Shown one piece after another: positions 1-37,618 of a stretch of DNA of 38,272 nucleotides. Position 1 is the stretch's first letter, and each line of letters starts with the position of its first letter. The position numbers and the translations under genes were made by a program. The notes beneath the pieces are model-generated. The model worked only from the letters and a program-made list of their open reading frames with translations. It was not told the DNA's origin and made no database searches. The stretch comes from an uncultured Methanomassiliicoccales archaeon (GTDB lineage Archaea > Thermoplasmatota > Thermoplasmata > Methanomassiliicoccales > Methanomethylophilaceae). The stretch covers positions 12,147-50,418 of the forward strand of contig CAZXIY010000001.1 of the NCBI GenBank assembly GCA_964640935.1. The letters are read 5' to 3'.

Positions 1-1
1 C

Positions 2-1492
2 TTCAAGGCCTCCGGACACGTCGACGAGTTCGCCGACCTAATAACATACTGCACCAAGTGCCAATCGCCTTTCAGGGCGGACCATCTCGTGAAGGATTTC
101 TACGAGAATGCGGACGTACTCACCCCGGAACAGCTCGAGCAGGCATTCAAGGATCATAACGTCAAATGCCCCGAATGCGGAGGGGAGCTCGGGAAGGTCG
201 AAGAGTTCAATCTTATGTTCAAGACCACCATCGGACCAGGTTCCGCACGTGTAGGATACCTCAGGCCGGAGACGGCACAGGGGATATTCGTGAACTTCCT
301 CAACCTCTACAGGTACAACAGGGAACGCCTTCCGCTCGGAGTGATACAGACCGGAAGGGGATACCGCAACGAGATCGCCCCCCGTCAGGGAATGATCCGC
401 ATGAGGGAATTCAACATGATGGAGGTCGAACTTTTCGTCGACCCCGACGACAAGGATTGGGTCAGGTTCCCGGACATAGAGAACGAGACCATGACGCTCC
501 TCCCGAACACCGGAAAGGAGATCACCGTGACCGTCGGAGATGCCGTCAAGAAAGGCATCATTGCCAACAAGGTCCTCGCGTACTTCGTGTACACGACCGA
601 ACAGCTCCTCGTGAAGCTCGGCATTGACCCCGCAAGACTCAGATTCAGACAGCATCTCCCGGACGAGATGGCCCACTACGCAGCGGATTGCTGGGATGCA
701 GAGGTTCTCCTGTCCTACGGATGGACGGAGATAACCGGTATCGCCGACAGGGGATGCTGGGACCTTTCCCGCCACGCTCAGTTCTCAGGCCAGGACCTTT
801 CGCATTTCAGAAAGTTCGATGAACCGCACGAGATAGAGGAAGACAAGGTTAAGGCCAAGCACAAGGCCCTTGGACCCAGATTCAAAGCGAAGGCAAAGGA
901 TGCTGCGGCAGAGATCGAGAAGCTCTCGCCGGCAGATGTAAAGAACGGCAAGATCTCGATAAAGCTCGACGGCGAGACGATCGAACTCGACGGAGAATAT
1001 TTCGAGATAGCCCATGTGAAAGAGAAGGTCGCAGGCGAACGCATAGTCCCGCATGTGATCGAACCGTCACACGGGCTGGACAGGATATTCTACTCCATAC
1101 TCGAGCACTCGTACGACCGCGACGAGAAGGAGGATTACACAGTCCTTCACCTGAAACCCGTCGTCGCCCCGATAAAGGTCGGCGTGTTCCCGCTGATGGA
1201 AAAGGACGGCCTCGATACCATCGCCCACGAGATCTACGATCAGATACACTGTACCGGCACGGAAGCGTACTACGACGGATCGGGCACGATCGGCAAGAGA
1301 TACGCCCGCATGGATGAGATTGGTACCCCTTGGTGCATCACCGTCGACTACGAATCGGTGGAGGACGGGGACAAGAAAGGAACCGTGACCATCAGAGACC
1401 GCGACTCGAAGGAGCAGAAGCGTATAAAGGCCTCCGAAGCGAAAATCGTCATCGACAGGCTGATCGCGGGGACTCCGTTCTCATCGATCTGA
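2..1492 (+). CDS. glyS: glycine--tRNA ligase (archaeal/eukaryotic alpha2-type GlyRS), 5' end cut by window edge
   Basis: The frame is open from the window edge (FKASGHVDEFADL... precedes the first Met at 89). Motifs RPETAQGIFVNF and YRNEIAPRQGMIRMREFNMMEVE are present. C-terminal anticodon-binding signature IGKRYARMDEIGTPWCITVD. TGA stop at 1490-1492. Confidence 0.93.
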   Translation, partial: FKASGHVDEFADLITYCTKCQSPFRADHLVKDFYENADVLTPEQLEQAFKDHNVKCPECGGELGKVEEFNLMFKTTIGPGSARVGYLRPETAQGIFVNFLNLYRYNRERLPLGVIQTGRGYRNEIAPRQGMIRMREFNMMEVELFVDPDDKDWVRFPDIENETMTLLPNTGKEITVTVGDAVKKGIIANKVLAYFVYTTEQLLVKLGIDPARLRFRQHLPDEMAHYAADCWDAEVLLSYGWTEITGIADRGCWDLSRHAQFSGQDLSHFRKFDEPHEIEEDKVKAKHKALGPRFKAKAKDAAAEIEKLSPADVKNGKISIKLDGETIELDGEYFEIAHVKEKVAGERIVPHVIEPSHGLDRIFYSILEHSYDRDEKEDYTVLHLKPVVAPIKVGVFPLMEKDGLDTIAHEIYDQIHCTGTEAYYDGSGTIGKRYARMDEIGTPWCITVDYESVEDGDKKGTVTIRDRDSKEQKRIKASEAKIVIDRLIAGTPFSSI

Positions 1493-1530
1493 CCTCGGCC
1501 AATCGATATTTAATACCTGTGAGAAAAGGA

Positions 1531-1560
1531 GCGGGAAACCGCCCCTTTTCCCGCTTTTTA
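1531..1560 (+). terminator. hairpin plus T-run downstream of glyS
   Basis: GCGGGAAA (1531-1538) pairs with TTTCCCGC (1547-1554) and is followed by TTTTT (1555-1559). Confidence 0.6.
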
Positions 1561-1661
1561 TCTCATTTCGGCAGACATCCGCCGGACGCTGGCATGGTTT
1601 CATTGGTTTCTCGGCAACCATTATATCTCTGGGAGACAGATTGTATTCCCGAGGTGTAAAA

Positions 1662-2846
1662 GTGGGAGTAAAAGACCTGCAGGATCTGAAAAAGATCTCT
1701 ATGCTCAGATCTCAGATCGAGAGCAAGACGATCGACGAGATTATGGACACCGATTTTCCGACGATAGGCCCCGAGGAGAAACTCGTGGATGCGCTCCTTG
1801 TGATGCGCAAGTCCGGTTACCAGGATCTGCCTGTCGTGGACGATGGCGAATATATCGGTACTGTGAATTATGGGGCGATCCTGAAAAAGAAGAACGTGGC
1901 TCTTGACACGAAGGTAAGGAACATCGTCAACACTCCTCCGGTAGTGACGAAGAACACCAAGATCACCGACGTCGCAGAGCTCATGGTGATGAACAACAGC
2001 AGACAGGTACCTGTTGTGAACGCCAGCAGAAAGAAGATCATAGGTGCCATAGGAAGGAACCGCATGATCGACATAGTCACCGGAATCAAGGCCTTCAAGG
2101 AGATCAAGGTCTGGGAGATAATGACCAACCCCGTGGAGAGCGTAAAGGACACCGCGATGCTCGATGATGCCCTCGAAATAATGAGGTCCCTCGACATAAG
2201 AACTGTGCCAGTGGTCGACAGCGCCGGCATGATAGCAGGTGTCGTCGGCATGAGAGAGGTCATAGACAACAACTGGAAGAACACCAACAAGACCGTCGGA
2301 GATATCTCCGGAAAGAACAAGAAGGCCGTTGTGACAGTGGAGTCCGTATGCAAGTCGGCCGTCAGCACCGTGAAGTGGGACGACGACGTCGAAGACGCGG
2401 TGGAGCTCATGTCCAAGAACAAGATCTCCACGCTGCCGGTACTCGAGGGCAACGATCTTGTGGGCATAATAACCCAGTATGACATAATCGAACTCATATC
2501 CGCATGCAAGGAGAGGTCGTTCCTCTTTGTTCAGATAAGCGGACTCGACGATGCCGACAAGGCATACACGAGCGCGATGTACGACTGCATCAAGGACGAG
2601 GTCGACAAGATCAGCAAGATCATCAAGCCCGAGTCGCTGAGCATCAACGTCGCCAAGTACAAGGAGAAGGGCGAGAAGAACAAGTACAGCGTAAGTGCCA
2701 GGCTCATCACCGACGGAAGAGCGATAAGCTCCAAAGAGGTCGGCTGGGATCTGATCAAGACGACCGACGACCTCATGGCCAAGATCCCGGCCGCGGTCAT
2801 CGACGAGAAGGACACCAAGGACTGCTTCCGCAAGAGAAAGAAATAA
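1662..2846 (+). CDS. four-CBS-domain protein with C-terminal HPF/RaiA-like module (function unknown)
   Basis: Four successive CBS-type repeats (e.g. IDEIMDTDFPTIGPEE..., VRNIVNTPPVVTKNT..., VWEIMTNPVESVKDT..., VESVCKSAVSTVKWDD...), followed by about 110 aa with a different pattern. GTG at 1662 sits 5 nt after GAGGTG (SD-like). Alternative starts are TTG 1641 and ATG 1701. TAA stop. Confidence 0.8.
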   Translation: MGVKDLQDLKKISMLRSQIESKTIDEIMDTDFPTIGPEEKLVDALLVMRKSGYQDLPVVDDGEYIGTVNYGAILKKKNVALDTKVRNIVNTPPVVTKNTKITDVAELMVMNNSRQVPVVNASRKKIIGAIGRNRMIDIVTGIKAFKEIKVWEIMTNPVESVKDTAMLDDALEIMRSLDIRTVPVVDSAGMIAGVVGMREVIDNNWKNTNKTVGDISGKNKKAVVTVESVCKSAVSTVKWDDDVEDAVELMSKNKISTLPVLEGNDLVGIITQYDIIELISACKERSFLFVQISGLDDADKAYTSAMYDCIKDEVDKISKIIKPESLSINVAKYKEKGEKNKYSVSARLITDGRAISSKEVGWDLIKTTDDLMAKIPAAVIDEKDTKDCFRKRKK

Positions 2847-2912
2847 GCCAAGGCCCTTCTCAACCATTTTCTCTAAAACCTTTTTAATATCTTTTCTCTG
2901 TACCCGATACAT

Positions 2913-5531
2913 ATGTCGCAATACGATTCCGCCGCGATCGAAAAACGCTGGCAGGAAATGTGGAAGAACGAAGAGATCTATCGTTTCGACCCCAAATCCG
3001 ACAAGCCGGTCTTCAGCATTGACAATCCCCCGAGATACACATCCGGGTCGCTTCACCTCGGTCACGCGACTGGTTATTCGCTGATCGATTTTGCAGCACG
3101 TTACAATAGGATGAAAGGATGCAACGTGTTCTTCCCCCTGTGCTTCGACGTCAACGGAACGCCGATAGAGGTGAAGGTGGAGAAGAAATACCACATAACC
3201 AAGCTGGACCTGCCCAGAAAGGAATACAGGAAACTGTGCTCGGATTACGCCAACGGCTTCATTGCCGAGATGACGCATCACTTCGAGATCCTCGGAGAGA
3301 GCATGGATCCCAGCATCTACTATCAGACAGACGCCCCGTATTACAGGCGCATAACGCAGCTCTCGTTCGTGGAACTGTTCAACAGAGGGCTCGTCTACAA
3401 AGGGAACTTCCCAGTCAACTGGTGCCCGAGATGCATGACCGCTCTCGCGGATGCCGAAGTAGAATACACCGAGAACGTGAACAAGCTCAACTACATCAAA
3501 TTCCAGATAGACGGCGGAAGCAAGGATGACTACGTACTTGTGGCGACAACAAGGCCGGAGCTCCTCTGCACATGCAAAGTGGTCGCTGTCCACCCGGACG
3601 ACAAAGATAAACAGCACCTCATCGGCAAATACCTCGTCACCCCCCTGTACGGGAGGAAGGTCAAGGTCATATCCGACCCGAAGGTCGATCCCAAATACGG
3701 TACCGGCAACGTCATGATCTGCACGATCGGCGACAAGGACGATCTCGAATGGGTTATGAAATACCACCTCGAGATGGAGAAAGGTATCGATGAGTACGGC
3801 AAGATGACCGAGCTCGCGGGAAAATACGCAGGTATGCCTGTGAAAGAGGCACGCGAAGCCGCCATAGCCGATCTCAAAGCTCAGGGCATCCTCGTCAAGC
3901 AGGAGGATAATCCACAGAACGTCTCCATATGCTGGAGATGCCACACGCCGGTGGAATTCCTCCAGGTCCCGCAGTGGTTCCTGAAAACGCTGGATTTCAA
4001 GAAAGAGGTCCTTGAGAGGGCCGACGAGATCAACTGGTACCCGGACTTCATGAAGATCAGGCTCCAGGACTGGGTCAAATCCCTCGAATGGGATTGGGTC
4101 CTGGGAAGGCAGCGCATATTCGCCACACCTGTCCCGATATGGGAATGCAAGGAATGCGGACATGCGGTCTGCGCCACGAAGGACATGTGCTACTGCGATC
4201 CGACGGAAGATAAACCGCCTGTAGACAAGTGCCCCGAGTGCGGATGCACCGAATTCGTAGGATGCACCGATGTCTTCGATACGTGGATGGATTCATCTGG
4301 TTCAGCTCTCTACAACACATACTGGGAGAGGGATCCGGAACTCCACAAGAAGCTCTTCCCGATGTCCATGAGGCCACAGTCCCATGACATCATCAGGACC
4401 TGGGCGTTCTATTCCATACTCAGAAGCGAGCAGATAGCGCAGTCCAGGCCGTGGAACGACATAATGATCCATGGATTCATAATGGCCCCGGACGGGACCC
4501 CTATGCATTCGTCCATCGGCAACGTCATCGATCCGATACCGATAATAACCGAATACGGCGCGGACGCTCTCAGGTACTATGCAAGCACATGTTCGCTGGG
4601 CATAGACCACGCCTTCAGGGAGAAGGACGTCGTGCGCGGAAGGAAGCTCTGCAACAAGGTCTTCAACATCGGGCAGTTCGTCGGACGTTTCTTCGATTCT
4701 AAACCGAAGGAATGCAAGGACCTGAGACCGTCCGATAAGTGGATCATCAGCAGATACTCACAGACGGTTAAGTCGGTCACGGAATACCTCGATACATACA
4801 CATTCGACAAGGCAATGAGGGACGTCGAGAACTTCATATGGCACGAGCTCGCGGACCACTACATCGAGATGGTCAAGTCCAGGAAGGACGACGCTGTGAA
4901 ATACACGCTGTACAACGTGTTCCTCGGAGCGATCAAGATGCTCGCCCCGTTCATGCCGCATGTGACCGAGGACGTTTATCAAGAGCACTTCGCCAAATAC
5001 GAAGGAGCGAAGAGCATACATCTCATGTCCTGGCCGGAACCTATATTCATCGATGCCGAAGCAGAGAAGACGGGGGATGTCCTCAAGGACGTCATCGCCG
5101 CCGTCCGCGTATGGAAGTCCGAGAAGAAGATCCCGCTCAACGCCGAACTCCAGCTCATGGAGATAATCGGCGAGGACTCATCGGCATTGGAATGCGCCAG
5201 ACAGGATATCATGGAGACCACGAAGGCAAAGGATCTCGAGATGGTCCAGAAAGCGGATCTGACCGAAGACTTCGTCGCCGTGAAACCCGTGCATTCGAAA
5301 CTCGGGCCGATGTTCAAGGCCGATGCCAAGACCATAGTGGCGGAGATCGCCAAGATGGATCCCGCGGATGTTGCTAAGCAGCTCTCCGAGGGCGGCGTCA
5401 AACTCAGCGTCGGAGGAAAGGATATCGTTCTGACGAACGAGTTCCTCGAACTCGAGAAACGTCTGATGCTCAACGGCAAGGCTGTCGACACCATACAGGT
5501 CGACAACATGCTGATAGCCATCGAGCAGTGA
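2913..5531 (+). CDS. valS: valine--tRNA ligase (archaeal type)
   Basis: Class I aaRS with HIGH-type motif SLHLGH. CP1/editing signatures TTRPELL and GTGNVMICTIGDKDDLEW resemble archaeal ValRS. YGADALRYY follows the KMSKS position. Length (872 aa) fits ValRS. Confidence 0.85.
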   Translation: MSQYDSAAIEKRWQEMWKNEEIYRFDPKSDKPVFSIDNPPRYTSGSLHLGHATGYSLIDFAARYNRMKGCNVFFPLCFDVNGTPIEVKVEKKYHITKLDLPRKEYRKLCSDYANGFIAEMTHHFEILGESMDPSIYYQTDAPYYRRITQLSFVELFNRGLVYKGNFPVNWCPRCMTALADAEVEYTENVNKLNYIKFQIDGGSKDDYVLVATTRPELLCTCKVVAVHPDDKDKQHLIGKYLVTPLYGRKVKVISDPKVDPKYGTGNVMICTIGDKDDLEWVMKYHLEMEKGIDEYGKMTELAGKYAGMPVKEAREAAIADLKAQGILVKQEDNPQNVSICWRCHTPVEFLQVPQWFLKTLDFKKEVLERADEINWYPDFMKIRLQDWVKSLEWDWVLGRQRIFATPVPIWECKECGHAVCATKDMCYCDPTEDKPPVDKCPECGCTEFVGCTDVFDTWMDSSGSALYNTYWERDPELHKKLFPMSMRPQSHDIIRTWAFYSILRSEQIAQSRPWNDIMIHGFIMAPDGTPMHSSIGNVIDPIPIITEYGADALRYYASTCSLGIDHAFREKDVVRGRKLCNKVFNIGQFVGRFFDSKPKECKDLRPSDKWIISRYSQTVKSVTEYLDTYTFDKAMRDVENFIWHELADHYIEMVKSRKDDAVKYTLYNVFLGAIKMLAPFMPHVTEDVYQEHFAKYEGAKSIHLMSWPEPIFIDAEAEKTGDVLKDVIAAVRVWKSEKKIPLNAELQLMEIIGEDSSALECARQDIMETTKAKDLEMVQKADLTEDFVAVKPVHSKLGPMFKADAKTIVAEIAKMDPADVAKQLSEGGVKLSVGGKDIVLTNEFLELEKRLMLNGKAVDTIQVDNMLIAIEQ

Positions 5532-5621: not shown

Positions 5622-7028
5622 TCACTGAAGGACCTTGACCGTTATGTGCTTGCCCTTGTGCTTGCACTTGGTGAGATCCATGGTCATCCTGTTGCCGAAA
5701 TCTCTGTGAACTTCGACGACCGACGATTCCGGACCGACCTGTATCTTTCCGATGGCCGCGTCGCGTATCCTCGCGTTGCGTATGATGAAATCGGCAAGGG
5801 ACACCTTTCCGTAACCGTCGTCCTTTCCGAGGTTCACCTCGAACTTCACCATTCCGAACACATCGGAGATCTGATCGTAATCGATGACCTTCCTGACGGT
5901 ATCCTTCATGCCGTCCTCTTCCGGAACATCGCGCTTCTCGATGCTCATCCCAGTACGGAGCTCGAACTCCCTCACAAGGTGCTCTTCCTCCGATGTCACG
6001 AACGACACAGCAATGCCTTCCTTTCCGGCACGTCCGGTCCTTCCGATACGGTGGATGTATGTGTCGATGTCATCGGGCATGTCGTAGTTTATGACGTAAC
6101 CGATGTCATCTATATCGAGACCTCTTGCGGCGACATCCGTGGCTATGAGTATATCGATCTTGTCGGCCTTGACATCGCTTATGACCTTCTCCCTTCTCGA
6201 CTGCGGAAGATCGCCGTGGATGGCCTCCACCTTGTAATCGAGATCTGTAAGCCTCTCATCGAGGATATCGACCATCTTCTTGGTCTGGCAGAATATTATC
6301 GCCTTCGGCTTATCGATGTCAAGTATCCTGCAGAGTGCCCATGTCTTATTCCTCCTTCCGACGGAGATATAGTACTGCTTTGTAAGATCGAGGACCATCT
6401 CATCCTGGGAGACGGTGATCTCCTTAGGATTCTTCATGTAGTCGTATGCGAGCCTCTTGACATTCTCCGGCATTGTCGCCGAGAAGAGGAGGATCTGCTT
6501 GTCGCCGGGCATCGATGACATTATGAACTCTATATCCTCGATGAAACCCATATCGAGCATACGGTCAGCCTCGTCGAGTATGAGCATATCGATATGCGTG
6601 AGGTTGAGAACACCCCTCTCGATCATGTCCCTGACCCTTCCGGGCGTTCCGGCAACGATATCGGTGCCTTTTTCAAGCTTCTTGATCTGCATCTCGATGG
6701 ATGCTCCGCCGTATATCGCGGTCGTCTTGTGCCCGGAATATTTCGAGAGCTTGTCCATCTCGCCTGCGACCTGGTTCGCAAGTTCTCTCGTAGGTACGAG
6801 AACGATCGCAGCGGGGATCTTATTCCCGGAACTGATCCTTCCGAGGACTATCGCCCCGTAGGCTCCCGTCTTTCCTGTACCCGTCTGGGCCTGTCCGAAC
6901 ATATCTATGCCGTCGAGACCTTTCTTTACGGACGCCTTCTGGATCGGGGTCGGTTCCTCCCAACCCATATCATCCATTGCTTTGGCAACGTCCTCTGTAA
7001 CTCCGATGTCTGTGAATTTTGAAATCAT
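5622..7028 (-). CDS. DEAD-box ATP-dependent RNA helicase with C-terminal DbpA-type RNA-binding domain
   Basis: Q motif/PTPIQ, AQTGTGKT (motif I), DEAD, SAT and HRIGRTGRAG are present. The C-terminal ~75 aa (GMVKFEVNLGKDDG...ITVKVLQ) resembles the DbpA RBD. The first ATG is at 7028; the ORF-track start at 7037 is TTG. Confidence 0.9.
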   Translation of the reverse strand: MISKFTDIGVTEDVAKAMDDMGWEEPTPIQKASVKKGLDGIDMFGQAQTGTGKTGAYGAIVLGRISSGNKIPAAIVLVPTRELANQVAGEMDKLSKYSGHKTTAIYGGASIEMQIKKLEKGTDIVAGTPGRVRDMIERGVLNLTHIDMLILDEADRMLDMGFIEDIEFIMSSMPGDKQILLFSATMPENVKRLAYDYMKNPKEITVSQDEMVLDLTKQYYISVGRRNKTWALCRILDIDKPKAIIFCQTKKMVDILDERLTDLDYKVEAIHGDLPQSRREKVISDVKADKIDILIATDVAARGLDIDDIGYVINYDMPDDIDTYIHRIGRTGRAGKEGIAVSFVTSEEEHLVREFELRTGMSIEKRDVPEEDGMKDTVRKVIDYDQISDVFGMVKFEVNLGKDDGYGKVSLADFIIRNARIRDAAIGKIQVGPESSVVEVHRDFGNRMTMDLTKCKHKGKHITVKVLQ

Positions 7029-7248
7029 TATAACCAAACCTACTGCCTGAGACTGACTCAGACACCATTCAGCTTACGCGCGAGCGTACTGTAACTGCGT
7101 TTAAATACCTATCTCATAAGATGGTATTTCTGACTGCAGGGACTTGCGATTTTCGTAATGCAGACGTCCGTTGGCATATCGTATCTGCAGTCTGAATGCA
7201 AAATACGTATCGCACGGCAGCAGACAAAAAACCCAGGCATTCAAAAGA

Positions 7249-7284: not shown

Positions 7285-7357
7285 GTGGGCGTAGTGTAGC
7301 TGGTTATCACTTAACCTTGCCAAGGTTAGAACTCGGGTTCGAATCCCGGCGCCCGCA
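7285..7357 (+). tRNA. tRNA-Gly (anticodon GCC)
   Basis: Hand-folded cloverleaf. Acceptor GTGGGCG/CGCCCGC has one G-U pair. Anticodon stem TAACC/GGTTA with loop TTGCCAA (anticodon GCC). T arm TCGGG-TTCGAAT-CCCGG. Discriminator is A. CCA is not encoded. Confidence 0.9.
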
Positions 7358-7361
7358 CCTA

Positions 7362-7512: not shown

Positions 7513-8070
7513 ATGGCTCTCAGTAAGAATCAGACGATTCTGATTGCTGTGGTAGCTATAGCCGTGATAGCCGTAGCCGGCATCGCAATCGCAATGAACA
7601 GCAACAACAATCCAAATCCAGAACCAAAAGAAACTGGCCTTACGGGAACATATGATTACAATGTTGCCGGGAGCAATATCGATCCAACTGAGAAATTTAA
7701 TCTCAAAGGGACTACAACCGTATATTTGAACAACGGTTCTTCATCGCCCAGAAGCAATAACATCACTGAAAGTGGAGCTGGCAGTCATCCAAAGTGGGCT
7801 TTTGATGCAATAAGTGTCCCAGTTTATCATATTGGTGATGCCGACAAATCTGGTATTGGACAGAAGAATGCAATGCTCAGCGGTGCCGTGTTCAAAGAGA
7901 ACACCACTATCGAGTACCACGAAAACGTCATAAACGTCGGCGTGTACACCGCGACGTTGACGGGGGGACTCACCCAAGCGATATACGCGGACGCCAACGG
8001 TGTCGTGTACAAAGTGGTCACATCCGACGGAACGTACACACTTACATACACACTCACCAGCCACACCTGA
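7513..8070 (+). CDS. hypothetical membrane-anchored/secreted protein
   Basis: N-terminal hydrophobic helix (ILIAVVAIAVIAVAGIAIA), then an Asn/Pro-rich linker (NSNNNPNPEPKE), then a Thr/Gly/Tyr-rich, probably beta-rich domain. No family recognised. TATA-like TAAATAAAA lies about 19 nt upstream of the ATG. Confidence 0.6.
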   Translation: MALSKNQTILIAVVAIAVIAVAGIAIAMNSNNNPNPEPKETGLTGTYDYNVAGSNIDPTEKFNLKGTTTVYLNNGSSSPRSNNITESGAGSHPKWAFDAISVPVYHIGDADKSGIGQKNAMLSGAVFKENTTIEYHENVINVGVYTATLTGGLTQAIYADANGVVYKVVTSDGTYTLTYTLTSHT

Positions 8071-8178: not shown

Positions 8179-9039
8179 TCAGAAGCTCCGGACCCACTGA
8201 TTCAAGACCTTCGACCTCACGCGCAGATCGAATACCGTTTTGTTCTTCCCGAAGAATGACGTGGGCAATTTATTCGACATGGCACACATCGATTCGATAT
8301 CATCGATAAGATCGTTCCTGACCGATGGCTCGATCGTATAGCAGCATACCATCTTCGGCAGGTGCACAGTCACCGCTTCGCCGATGGAATCTATATCGCC
8401 GGCATTGACCGATCTCACTTTGTCTTCTTCGATGCGGAACACCTTTATGAAATCGCTTACAGCGAATTCCTTTGACAATTCCACGTACTTAGCGCCCTTC
8501 TCCGTTATAAAAGCGTTCAACAGACCGTTGTAGGCGGCATTCCCCATATCCAACAGCGGCTTTAATTCGAGATAATAGGAATCGATTATCTCGCCGGGTC
8601 CGAGCAGTATGCGTCTGTTTATCGTCCCATCGGATCTGTCGGCATCGTAAATACGACCGAGAAGCTCCTTGCCAACGACCTGATATCCTTCTTCTTTGGA
8701 ATAATCGTATGATTTTTCAAAACATCTGATCGCGGCGTCCGAATCGACCCCCAGTATGCAGTATCCTTTCAGGAACCATGCATCCGGTGATCCGGTATCG
8801 ATGTCCAATGCCTTGTTCGCAAGATCTTCCGCTCTCCCCAACTCATTGCAATCAATCGAATCCAGCGAAGCTTTTAGAAGATTGATCAGTGTAAGACGGC
8901 TGTCTATCTCCACTTTGCCTGACGTGCTCGGCTCGTTGATTATCTCCGAACCGCAGTGGACGCAGAACCCTCTTTTCATATTATCGTCGAGGTGCACCTC
9001 ACCGCCACAGTTCGGACATTTCAACGCTTTCAGGACCAT
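8179..9039 (-). CDS. hypothetical protein with N-terminal zinc ribbon and TPR-like helix pair
   Basis: CPNCGGEV...CVHCGSEI forms a zinc ribbon right after the ATG at 9039. AEDLANKALDIDTGSPDAWFLKGYCILG is TPR-like. The longer ORF-track N-terminus (to 9135) looks like an extension. Confidence 0.6.
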   Translation of the reverse strand: MVLKALKCPNCGGEVHLDDNMKRGFCVHCGSEIINEPSTSGKVEIDSRLTLINLLKASLDSIDCNELGRAEDLANKALDIDTGSPDAWFLKGYCILGVDSDAAIRCFEKSYDYSKEEGYQVVGKELLGRIYDADRSDGTINRRILLGPGEIIDSYYLELKPLLDMGNAAYNGLLNAFITEKGAKYVELSKEFAVSDFIKVFRIEEDKVRSVNAGDIDSIGEAVTVHLPKMVCCYTIEPSVRNDLIDDIESMCAMSNKLPTSFFGKNKTVFDLRVRSKVLNQWVRSF

Positions 9040-9235
9040 ATCTTTCACTAGTCCAGGTGAAGTTAATAATAATATCGAAGATGCATGGCCGGACGGACAA
9101 ACACATAACTTACAACCGATCTTTCGTGAGACCAAAGATTTGCATCCGTCGGAAAGCGGATACGCGAACCGACATTATATCTGTCGGCAGACACATCTGT
9201 CCGCATCCAGTGAATCACAGGGATGTTGAACAACG

Positions 9236-18641: not shown

Positions 18642-19172
18642 TCACGCTTTCTTATTGAGCTCTTTTATCTCTTTGATGATCGCATCGGCGTTGTCCTTGC
18701 CCACGCGAGCTCCTTTCCTAAGATAGAAGGACCATCCGCGTTCTTTGCATACATCCCTGAATTCTTCGCTTGTCACCGCGATGACCTTTCCCGCAGGCAG
18801 GGCATCGATCAGCATCGCGAACATCTCCTTCGGAACGCATACTATCACTTTGTCGAAAGCACGGGAGATGTATTCCGTCTTGCCCACGAAATCCTTCCTT
18901 TCCTGAAGTTCCTCGTAATCCTTCTTGCACGACGGCACCTCGGCATACTGCATTATGACGTAATTCGCCGGTATGAAACCGAATCTGCCGCTTATGATCG
19001 CGAAAGAGATGTCGCAGACCCTGTCCAACCTTGCCACGAGGTGCTTGACCTCGACCAGCCTGCCGCCGAACATCTCGAATGCACTGGCGATACCTTTCTT
19101 CAGGAACACGTTCGAATCATTGGATATCACCATTACGCGCTTGTCATTGCTCTTTACCGCTTTAGGTTCCAT
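18642..19172 (-). CDS. hypothetical alpha/beta protein co-transcribed with hypA-hypD
   Basis: 176-aa ORF. Its ATG at 19172 lies 1 nt after the hypD stop (19174-19176). No family confidently recognised. Confidence 0.6.
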   Translation of the reverse strand: MEPKAVKSNDKRVMVISNDSNVFLKKGIASAFEMFGGRLVEVKHLVARLDRVCDISFAIISGRFGFIPANYVIMQYAEVPSCKKDYEELQERKDFVGKTEYISRAFDKVIVCVPKEMFAMLIDALPAGKVIAVTSEEFRDVCKERGWSFYLRKGARVGKDNADAIIKEIKELNKKA

Positions 19173-33781: not shown

Positions 33782-35005
33782 TCAGAACGTCCTGACCTTT
33801 CCATTGATGATAAGGTCTGTGACTTTATCAACATTGTCAAGCCAGTCATTCGCGATGACCTGTGCGTCAGATCTCCATTTCGCGAGCTTGTTCTCGTTCT
33901 CCATGGTGACGAGCTGCACGTTGCAGTTGAGCGGCTCGGTCACAGGTTTTCCGATCTGGGACAGTATCCTGACACGTACTTCGACATCGGGAGAGACCTC
34001 TTTGGCGACATCCTCGGCGATGAGCTTCGACATGACGTTGTAGATCTTTCCGATGTGCGTGATCGGGTTCTTTCCGGACGTTGCCTCCATGGACATCGGC
34101 CTGTACGGCGTGATGAGCCCGTTGGCCCTGTTGCCCCTTCCCACGGAACCGTCGTCTCCCATCTCCTGGGACATTCCGGTGCATGTGAGGTAGTACACGC
34201 CTCTGTTGTAATCGTCGCCGGTGTTGACATCGACCGTCAGATTGAGGCCGCTGTCGCCGATGATGTCGAGTGCGTTCTGTGTTACACGCTCTTTGAGATG
34301 TTCGATCGCGGATGCGTAGTGGGAAGCGTCGGCGATATGTTTGTCGACCATAGCGCAGGCGACGGTAAGTGTCATGTCGCTGCCTACTCTCGATGCCATG
34401 ACCTTGACGTCCTGGCCGGTCTCCGGGAGCTCTTTCTTCAGTTTACCGTTGATGTACTCCTCGGTATTGAGGACGAGCCTGTCGGTGATCGAGTACGGGG
34501 CGTATCCTACACCGAAGGATGTGTCGTTCGCAAGGAACTTCGAGGTCTGGTACACTCCCCTGAGGTCATCAGAACCCTGTCCGAGCCTGGCGTCGATGAC
34601 GACTTCGGAGTCGACATCGAGGTTGGGGAATGTCTTTCTGAGGTATTCCCTGGCGGCCTTCAGTGCGATAGGTTTGCACGGAAGGGATTTCACATCTTTC
34701 GTCTTGATGTCCTCGACGTGTGTGGTCGCGCGTCCGACCAATAGAATATACGACGGGTCGATGATCGTTCCGCCGCCGAATCTCGGAGCTGCCTGACCTG
34801 CGGCGATCTGCGTCTCGTCGGTGTTGTGGTGCAGCACTGTGCCGAACTCTTTTTTGTACATCCTGCACAGGGCTTTGCTCACTTCTTCAGCAAGAGCGTC
34901 TGCGACGCTGTCCGGGTGACCGATACCTTTCCTCTCGACAAGTTCGATCTTTCTCATCGGTACAGGTATCTCGCTTATTCCCTCGACGTAAATGTTCTTA
35001 GCCAT
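33782..35005 (-). CDS. mat: archaeal-type S-adenosylmethionine synthetase
   Basis: [30 protein letters not shown] and [11 protein letters not shown] are typical of archaeal MAT. The ATG at 35005 is preceded by AAGGAAGGG. The ORF-track start at 35041 adds 12 unlikely residues. Confidence 0.92.
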
Positions 35006-35051
35006 CTTTTTCCCTTCCTTAAAGGTTAACAATGTTGCCATGAGCTTATCG

Positions 35052-35074: not shown

Positions 35075-35090
35075 TATTCATATATGAATA
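35075..35090. promoter_or_regulatory. 16-nt perfect palindrome overlapping the predicted start of the HTH-CBS gene
   Basis: TATTCATATATGAATA is a perfect self-complement. It contains the ATG at 35084. Confidence 0.5.
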
Positions 35091-35668
35091 TCAATACATA
35101 CCTTATGAAATTCCCGCCGACATCGGACATAAGAAAAATGAGAAAAACCCTGGACATCACGCAGGCTCAGCTAGCCGCCGCGTCCGGCATCAGCCAAAGC
35201 ACGATAGCCAAAGTGGAGAGCGATTCCATCTCTGCAAGCTACGTCACGGTGGTGAAGCTGTTCGAGACCTTGGACGTCATGCACAAGGACGATCACAGCG
35301 ACCTCACGGCCGCGGACGTCGCATCCAAAGGCGTGGTAACGATACAAAGCAACGACACCGTTCACGGCGCATCGGATCTCATGAAATCCACCGGTTATTC
35401 TCAATTGCCGGTGTTCGAAGGTGAGATACCCGTCGGGAGCATCTCCGAGAGGATAATATTGGAACTTGTGAGGAAGGGCATGACGATGGACGAATTGTCC
35501 GCCAAACCGATCTACAAGGTCATGGGCGAATCCTTCCCGGTGATATCCGACATAACGCCGATAACCACTGTGACGTCCCTGATGTCAGATTACAGCGCGG
35601 TGCTTGTAGCAAAGAAAGGGAAGACCGTGGGCCTCATAACCAGCGCGGATATGCTCAAACTGATCTGA
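35084..35668 (+). CDS. XRE-type HTH plus CBS-pair transcriptional regulator
   Basis: The HTH is LDITQAQLAAASGISQSTIAKVE. Two CBS motifs follow (AADVASKGVVTIQSNDTV..., IYKVMGESFPVISDITP...). An alternative ATG lies at 35105. Confidence 0.8.
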   Translation: MNINTYLMKFPPTSDIRKMRKTLDITQAQLAAASGISQSTIAKVESDSISASYVTVVKLFETLDVMHKDDHSDLTAADVASKGVVTIQSNDTVHGASDLMKSTGYSQLPVFEGEIPVGSISERIILELVRKGMTMDELSAKPIYKVMGESFPVISDITPITTVTSLMSDYSAVLVAKKGKTVGLITSADMLKLI

Positions 35669-36786: not shown

Positions 36787-36944
36787 ACTCCCACTGATTG
36801 TGGTCGCGCTTAATTAATTTGTTCTAAATAGCACGTCGAGACCGCGGTAACGCCGCCTGCTGGTCGGTCCGGGCAGGGCTCGGTATCCCCGCGGTGGGCA
36901 ATCATGTTTTTCTATGACCGCCGTGATAGCGTCCGGCGACAGAA

Positions 36945-37523
36945 ATGAGACCGATGCCGTACCTGCCGATGATAGGGGTCGCATTCTACGTTATCTGCTG
37001 GATAACGGCTGCGATGATGATGCCCGAATGGAGATTCATGCAGGTATGGCCGAGCACGCTCGGCACTGCGGCATCGCCCGGACAGCTGATATTCAACACG
37101 GGGATGGTCGTATCGGGCGCACTGATGGCCGTGTACGGTTATTCAATGCACACTGTGTCCGAGAACATCTGGCTCAGACTGTCATTCATCCTGGCGTCAG
37201 TCGGCGGGGCCCTGCTCATGGGCGTCGGGATATTCAACGACGACATCGCGTACATGCACGAACTGTTCACTATGTCGATGTTCACGATATCCATGATATC
37301 GATAATCTACCTCGGGGCATATTTCATAAGCACCGGAAGAAAGAATATCGCGGTCGTGCTTCTGCTGTCCGTATTCGCCGTCTGCATCAGCGGACCTCTG
37401 ATATCGAATCCCGCCTGGGATACCATCGGCACGATCTTCATAGACGTCTGGTCGTTCACCGTCAGCTTCGCCGCATGGAGATACCCGTTCTGGAAGAACG
37501 ATGGGGGAAGGTGCTCCTCATGA
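36945..37523 (+). CDS. DUF998-like integral membrane protein
   Basis: About six hydrophobic helices. STLGTAASPGQLIFNTGMVVSGALM resembles the DUF998 signature. Preferred over the Arg/His-rich overlapping frame 36914..37618. Confidence 0.65.
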   Translation: MRPMPYLPMIGVAFYVICWITAAMMMPEWRFMQVWPSTLGTAASPGQLIFNTGMVVSGALMAVYGYSMHTVSENIWLRLSFILASVGGALLMGVGIFNDDIAYMHELFTMSMFTISMISIIYLGAYFISTGRKNIAVVLLLSVFAVCISGPLISNPAWDTIGTIFIDVWSFTVSFAAWRYPFWKNDGGRCSS

Positions 37524-37618
37524 ACGATCTGGATATATTCTCGGCGTGCGTCGTACTGATCACGATAGCATCGGTGATAGTATTCTCATATGCCTACTAC
37601 AAACGCAGAACTAGATAG
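37520..37618 (+). CDS. candidate 32-aa single-TM micro-protein
   Basis: Translates as MNDLDIFSACVVLITIASVIVFSYAYYKRRTR. The ATG overlaps the upstream TGA (ATGA). Hydrophobic core with a basic tail. TAG stop. Confidence 0.3.
   Translation: MNDLDIFSACVVLITIASVIVFSYAYYKRRTR

Follow-up and report, generated by a model that had tools for sequence, protein, structure and literature searches.

The stretch of DNA described here (the window) comprises 38,272 nucleotides from an uncultured Methanomassiliicoccales archaeon of the family Methanomethylophilaceae (GenBank assembly GCA_964640935.1, contig CAZXIY010000001.1, positions 12,147 to 50,418), and it contains a gene at 1662–2846 that is very probably this family's orthologue of HibA, also named AHA, a ribosome hibernation factor of archaea. 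The predicted product has four CBS domains followed by a C-terminal domain with the fold of the bacterial ribosome hibernation factors HPF and RaiA, and it is homologous both to HibA and to bacterial HPF. An earlier note made from the sequence alone had placed a gene with these coordinates here, with four CBS repeats and an HPF/RaiA-like C-terminal module, between glyS and valS, and all of these elements are borne out below. Fusions of CBS and HPF domains were published in 2025–2026 as HibA and AHA, and the window gene is an ordinary member of this known family. From homology to the characterized members, we infer that the protein binds ribosomes, inhibits translation and binds nucleotides in the window organism.

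The best match of the whole protein in the PDB is to HibA. A phmmer search identified chain 9sr9_H (E 6e-22, 81.6 bits), with the next CBS protein at 51.7 bits, and the match is colinear, pairing residues 31–392 of the 401-residue translation with chain residues 6–374. The chain is 392 residues long and is deposited as 'Dehydrogenase', and Madru et al. (Nat Commun 2026, PMC13324472) identify entry 9SR9, in their data statement, as HibA-ATP of Pyrococcus abyssi. A BLASTP comparison with the HibA sequence (read back from the alignment) shows 25% identity over 362 residues (E 5e-21). HibA is P. abyssi PAB0961 (PDB 9SR9–9SRF and 9T7H; F0LKU5 in T. barophilus), with four CBS domains in residues 1–269 and an HPF/RaiA-like part in residues 270–392, and is carried by 47% of archaeal genomes (PMC13324472); the view in the earlier note that classical HPF homologues are generally unreported in archaea does not hold, since domains of this type are now recognized as widespread there. 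Souza et al. (bioRxiv 2026, PMC12934967) arrived at this family independently and named it AHA (H. volcanii HVO_2384, UniProt D4GWN2), and because the queries of the AHA survey included a protein of Methanomassiliicoccales archaeon RumEn M2 (A0A0Q4BAF9), the order is already covered by the published family.

Structural comparison places the C-terminal module among the hibernation factors. AlphaFold2 (AF2) models of the full protein with 25 aligned orthologues (mean predicted local distance difference test score, pLDDT, 78.3) and of the isolated module (75.6) both give the order β-α-β-β-β-α, which the earlier note had read by eye in the last ~110 residues; the peptides it quoted are present in the translation, and the module start it proposed (~2511) compares with ~2514 (residue ~285) from the alignment to P. 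abyssi HibA. When the isolated module was compared with the PDB using Foldseek, ranks 1–29 were occupied exclusively by HPF, RaiA, YfiA and pY proteins (E-values down to 1.4e-6), including chloroplast pY, the V. cholerae and E. coli HPFs, factors from T. thermophilus and M. smegmatis, the HPF on the Lyme disease pathogen's hibernating ribosome, and P. urativorans RaiA (template modelling (TM) scores 0.69/0.76). An ACT or other ferredoxin-like topology, which had been raised as the competing possibility, is rejected on this ranking, where no such fold competes. No HibA (9SR*) entry was among the matches for either the protein or the module in the Foldseek copy of the PDB (to 2026-04-08). In Pfam, PF02482 (Ribosomal_S30AE) is the sole match to the C-terminal 118 residues and spans profile positions 11–85 of 88 (E 0.0028), although it falls under the curated cut-off; it also matches 15 of 19 orthologous C-termini at E<1, with a best E-value of 1.9e-5. 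No NCBIfam model fits the C-terminus. The domain is homologous to HPF/RaiA, yet lies outside the curated bacterial PF02482 model.

Sequence profiles lead to the same family. A narrow profile of close orthologues gave weak matches in the PDB, yet the top two were RaiA (E 0.097) and HibA (E 0.16), and hhalign gave no useful signal between this profile and the HibA C-terminus taken as a single sequence (probability 4%). A broader profile was needed, and it was made from 34 distant relatives taken from a 50%-cluster search together with the window sequence. It matches the C-terminus of 9sr9_H (E 4.8e-9), E. coli HPF (5.4e-6), another HPF (5.8e-6), P. urativorans RaiA (6.2e-5) and more than 20 further HPF, RaiA or YfiA chains, and the HPF-like reading of the module is well beyond chance. 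The alignment shows an insertion of ~5 residues in the β2–β3 hairpin relative to E. coli HPF, and the models have a long terminal helix; both have been reported for the archaeal HPF-like domain (HibA, PMC13324472; AHA, PMC12934967). With the close-orthologue module profile we found 479 clusters (50% identity) among 1.84 billion representatives, and the best 150 of these are mostly proteins of 355–413 residues with the match at the C-terminal end, representing the same fusion, and some are stand-alone proteins of 100–130 residues. One relative, at 63% identity, is annotated at source as 'CBS domain-containing protein/ribosome-associated translation inhibitor RaiA'. We also note that the broader profile matches residues 288–390 of a 406-residue 'CBS domain-containing protein' in the PDB (9l96_a, also 9l98, 9l9c and 9l9v; E 6.8e-5), which is probably another solved factor of the HibA/AHA type; a literature search on the code 9L96 found no relevant paper.

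The CBS module is a tetrad of β-α-β-β-α units in the AF2 model, and in Foldseek it comes closest to SriA, a hibernation factor that binds the 50S subunit, in its structure on the M. acetivorans 70S ribosome (E 2e-20, TMt 0.86), with MJ1225, AMPK gamma and Dri next. The position of SriA as the closest tetrad structure agrees with the published view that AHA derived from a SriA-like ancestor (PMC12934967). The 19-residue loop following CBS3 (WKNTNKTVGDISGKNKKAV) aligns with the HibA loop at residues 190–207 (RFKAQYGELAGEKIPPFS), and this loop inserts into the peptidyl-transferase centre in both HibA (PMC13324472) and AHA (PMC12934967). Residues 206–221 are the lowest-confidence internal segment of the AF2 model (pLDDT <50), and the orthologues keep a G-D-[IL]-S-G core, with D214 in every sequence and G213 in 22 of 25. 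The CBS4 motif is similarly conserved (G268 and D274 in all 25 orthologues, T271 in 23), corresponds to GILTVKD in HibA, and its residues make it a likely adenine-nucleotide site. The equivalent motif in CBS3 is GVVGMRE, an invariant G-x-V-G-M-x-E in the orthologues, where HibA, with GLVTLHD, keeps the canonical form G-h-h-T-x-x-D; because this motif has diverged, ligand stoichiometry or identity may differ from that of HibA. At the N-terminus ~23 residues (MGVKDLQDLKKISMLRSQIESKT) are conserved across the Methanomassiliicoccales orthologues with no counterpart in the P. abyssi HibA alignment, which begins with residue 24 of the window protein opposite HibA residue 6. At the other end, R390 is invariant and positions 391–394 are mostly arginine or lysine.

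Homology to P. abyssi HibA and H. volcanii AHA, whose structures come from cryo-electron microscopy (cryo-EM), allows a mechanism to be proposed. The HPF/RaiA-like domain would lie in the 30S mRNA/tRNA channel at the decoding centre, with the basic tail directed at the mRNA exit channel, and the CBS tetrad would dock on the 50S subunit at peptidyl-transferase centre, uL5 or L1-stalk positions, with the long CBS3 loop entering the peptidyl-transferase centre. A single chain would then bridge both subunits, exclude mRNA and occlude the tRNA sites (A, P and E), and idle 70S ribosomes would be kept intact through starvation or stress. An adenine nucleotide, with AMP favoured, is probably bound by the CBS module at the CBS3/CBS4 interface, as in HibA, which binds one adenine nucleotide (AMP Kd 12 µM), with AMP or ATP at that interface (PMC13324472). 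Family members have been studied by cryo-EM, they inhibit translation in vitro, and their deletion delays regrowth (PMC13324472, PMC12934967). HibA at 6 µM inhibits translation in extract and requires its C-terminal domain to do so, and deletion of hibA leaves ~60% fewer stationary-phase 70S ribosomes and doubles the regrowth lag (PMC13324472); in the absence of AHA, 32 ribosomal proteins are depleted and viability is lower (PMC12934967).

Several observations weigh against assigning the protein to HibA/AHA or against carrying the full mechanism over to it. Identity to HibA is only 25%, the CBS3 motif departs from that of HibA, AF2 confidence is moderate (means of 78 and 76), and the single-sequence PF02482 score of 18.8 bits is under the curated gathering cut-off of 23.7. 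A phmmer search of the PDB with the C-terminal 118 residues alone returned only chance-level matches (IF3, neuroligin and ferrochelatase; E ≥ 0.55). The experimental function data come from family members outside this order. Finally, the ribosome-binding states of HibA are unaltered by AMP or ATP (PMC13324472), so that an energy-sensing switch is a hypothesis for the whole family; the earlier note's CBS-gated ribosome-binding module agrees with the architecture published for HibA and AHA, whose CBS modules bind adenine nucleotides, and its energy-sensing shut-off does not go beyond that hypothesis.

These departures invite other readings. One is that the protein works off the ribosome as a CBS-tetrad regulator, either a transcription factor of the HhpR type or a sensor of metabolism, with a generic α/β module of the ACT or ferredoxin-like kind for ligand binding or dimerization at its C-terminus. 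CBS tetrads are found in many contexts, weak NCBIfam matches include HhpR and CbpB, and the sub-threshold Pfam score would fit such a protein. However, the best whole-protein match in the PDB is HibA rather than PH1780, HhpR-like proteins or other tetrads, the 29 best structural matches of the C-terminus are all ribosome hibernation factors, and the profile E-values to HPF/RaiA are significant; moreover, a relative encodes a separate 279-residue tetrad upstream of glyS, with uncharacterized P. horikoshii PH1780 as its best PDB match. We therefore regard an off-ribosome regulator as extremely improbable. A different reading accepts the homology to HibA and supposes that function has changed in this lineage, giving for example an inhibitor of the 30S subunit only or a sensor of a ligand other than AMP or ATP. 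The invariant but non-canonical CBS3 motif, the order-conserved 23-residue extension lacking in the P. abyssi HibA alignment, and evolution faster than that of the flanking synthetases (51–71% versus 62–90% identity) are all compatible with it. Nonetheless, the protein retains the CBS3 loop with its G-D-[IL]-S-G core as well as the HPF domain, the CBS4 site and the basic tail, and there is no pointer to any particular alternative ligand, so a change of this kind seems very unlikely. Related to this is the question of whether the Methanomassiliicoccales orthologues form a functionally distinct sub-type, marked by the extra N-terminal helix, a remodelled CBS3 site and near-strict linkage to glyS (72 of 73 loci). 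The remodelled, invariant site may alter the number or identity of the ligands sensed by the tetrad, and the linkage could tie expression of the factor to the aminoacyl-tRNA synthetase genes, and we consider such a sub-type a tentative and rather doubtful proposal. Orthology to HibA/AHA thus remains the preferred assignment, and the features of the gene and its surroundings are collected in Table 1 accordingly.

Table 1. The hibA/AHA-type gene, the parts of its product and the adjacent features of the window
Feature	Nucleotides	Strand	Residues	Basis and remarks
glyS, class II glycyl-tRNA synthetase type	1..1492	+		Pfam tRNA-synt_2b and HGTP_anticodon; 5' end cut by window
13-bp hairpin then T5 run, glyS–hibA spacer	1526..1564	+		Terminator-like scan and RNA fold
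TATA-like TTATAT, candidate promoter	1621..1626	+		36–41 nt upstream of start codon; putative, from sequence reading
Shine-Dalgarno-like GAGGTG	1651..1656	+		5 nt ahead of GTG start; sequence reading, putative function
hibA/AHA-type gene	1662..2846	+	1–394	Open reading frame list; 394 codons, GTG start, stop codon 2844–2846
N-terminal extension	1662..1730	+	1–23	Predicted helix (AF2, residues 3–20); orthologue alignment
CBS tetrad	1731..2513	+	~24–284	Pfam CBS, 4 stretches, E 3.6e-40; AF2; Foldseek
CBS1 (approximate)			24–75	
CBS2 (approximate)			84–137	
CBS3 (approximate)			148–204	
CBS4 (approximate)			224–284	
Extended loop after CBS3, WKNTNKTVGDISGKNKKAV	2274..2330	+	205–223	Aligned with HibA peptidyl-transferase-centre loop
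CBS4 ribose-phosphate motif G-I-I-T-Q-Y-D	2463..2483	+	268–274	Alignment of 25 orthologues
HPF/RaiA-like domain	2514..2816	+	285–385	AF2, Foldseek, profile matches, sub-cut-off PF02482
β1			289–293	Both AF2 models
α1			299–320	Both AF2 models
β2			323–333	Both AF2 models
β3			341–350	Both AF2 models
β4			353–361	Both AF2 models
α2			364–393	Both AF2 models
Basic C-terminal tail KDCFRKRKK	2817..2843	+	386–394	Orthologue alignment
valS-type class I aminoacyl-tRNA synthetase	2913..5531	+		Pfam tRNA-synt_1 (E 1.6e-80) and Anticodon_1

The mechanically listed open reading frame (1641..2846, +) has a TTG start and 401 codons. We place the start at the GTG at 1662 because the 394-residue product is 100% identical to a database protein (P0006) and because its N-terminal peptide MGVKDLQDLKKISMLRSQI is kept in relatives down to ~55% identity. 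The alternative starts TTG 1641 and ATG 1701 are ruled out by this conserved N-terminus together with the Shine-Dalgarno-like sequence before the GTG. The synthetase genes on either side are recognized by their Pfam domains, and the glyS orthologue is 570 residues long in relatives. The glyS–hibA spacer is 169 nt, and its hairpin folds at −26.6 kcal/mol (z −5.09), with none of 200 shuffled sequences folding as well. The hairpin and T5 run are likely the end of the glyS transcript, and the hibernation-factor gene therefore probably has its own promoter. A sigma-70 promoter scan has no meaning for an archaeon, and the TTATAT was called by reading the sequence rather than with an archaeal promoter model. 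Taken together, the hairpin, the TATA-like box and the Shine-Dalgarno-like sequence suggest a hibA transcript separate from that of glyS, and the linkage of the two genes is thus probably positional rather than operonic.

Distribution and synteny were examined in a scan of one genome per species, with synteny counts taken over those of the loci L001–L083 that have enough flank. There are 126 relatives, the best 80 of which are all on Methanomassiliicoccales contigs, and the closest (71% identity) is in a goat-rumen Methanomethylophilaceae metagenome-assembled genome. In 72 of 73 related loci the hibernation-factor gene is directly preceded by glyS in the same orientation, and valS is directly downstream in 33 of 69. 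Identity to the relatives across these loci is 51–71% for the hibernation factor, 65–79% for glyS and 62–90% for valS. This synteny is not mentioned in the main text of either the HibA or the AHA paper, and the terms 'tRNA synthetase' and 'operon' are absent from the AHA paper, the only one checked for them. Each of the computational checks that the earlier note had suggested favours its reading.

One of the related loci has an additional CBS protein. In L001, from a 55%-identity relative, two universal stress protein genes and the gene for the 279-residue four-CBS protein lie just upstream of glyS (2377–4122), and the best PDB sequence match of this tetrad is PH1780 (2yzq, E 6e-26), with the Sri proteins ranking lower. 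A second CBS tetrad is therefore encoded close to the hibernation factor in L001; the window itself starts inside glyS. Nine other loci (L005, L007, L008, L040, L042, L062, L065, L066 and L070) are archaeal glyS–hibA contigs in bins with bacterial names (Bacteroides salyersiae, Dialister hominis, Prevotella hominis, Lachnospiraceae and others), and mis-binning of Methanomethylophilaceae contigs in the gut metagenome assemblies is the apparent cause.

Elsewhere in the window, valS is followed by a minus-strand gene (5622–7037) for a DEAD-box helicase whose product includes a DbpA RNA-binding domain. The helicase gene recurs 3' of valS in many related loci, and after it there is a tRNA-Gly(GCC) gene (7285–7359). 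A regulator gene with HTH_3 and CBS domains (35084–35668, +) is divergent from a gene for an archaeal-type S-adenosylmethionine (SAM) synthetase (33782–35041, −); because CBS domains are able to bind SAM, the two could constitute a SAM-responsive regulator pair. Four open reading frames of 175–318 codons (7513–8070, 8179–9135, 18642–19172 and 36914–37618) match no Pfam family at E ≤ 1e-5.

The CBS–HPF fusion answers an old question, namely how archaea silence and store ribosomes, and the answer was published with structures and genetics in 2025–2026, in a literature only months old; the fusion joins bacterial HPF to nucleotide sensing of the AMPK-gamma type. The window adds a clear orthologue from a lineage of gut or rumen methylotrophic methanogens and illustrates that the family is recognizable from raw sequence alone. 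The practical use is in better annotation, as public records label this protein only 'CBS domain-containing protein'. Linkage to glyS, the N-terminal helix and an altered CBS3 site are minor additions specific to the lineage, and they may or may not carry functional weight.

Of the known systems, HibA has the same layout. Both proteins have four CBS repeats and a C-terminal HPF/RaiA-like domain in chains of similar length (394 residues here and 392 in HibA), with a long loop after CBS3, a canonical CBS4 nucleotide motif and a long terminal helix. They differ in that the window protein has the extra conserved N-terminal helix (~23 residues), GVVGMRE rather than GLVTLHD as its CBS3 motif, and a strongly basic tail (FRKRKK), and it is from a mesophilic gut or rumen methanogen lineage whereas HibA is from a hyperthermophile. 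In the AHA structure the 50S subunit likewise carries the CBS tetrad, whose CBS3 loop lies in the peptidyl-transferase centre, and the 30S carries the HPF domain; compared by its description, AHA holds two AMP molecules at the CBS3/CBS4 junction, whereas in the window protein only the CBS4 motif is canonical.

The other systems each share one part of the protein. Bacterial HPF/RaiA (YfiA, pY; PF02482) has the same β-α-β-β-β-α fold (TM 0.6–0.76), but is either a stand-alone protein of ~95–120 residues or a long HPF with a C-terminal dimerization domain, whereas the window domain ends a 394-residue CBS fusion and has the ~5-residue β2–β3 insertion and a longer last helix. SriA-D/ARC of M. acetivorans (PDB 9ZNF, 9ZNG and 9ZNI) and Dri of P. 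calidifontis (9E6Q and 9E7F) are also archaeal CBS-tetrad ribosome hibernation factors, but Sri has one tetrad and Dri two fused tetrads, neither with an HPF domain, and the window protein combines one tetrad with an HPF-like domain. The AMPK gamma subunit of eukaryotes shares the four-CBS disc, with many chains among the top Foldseek matches (E ~1e-17), and its nucleotide sites correspond to those in AHA (PMC12934967), but it regulates a kinase rather than the ribosome, is without an HPF domain and has ~15% sequence identity to the window protein.

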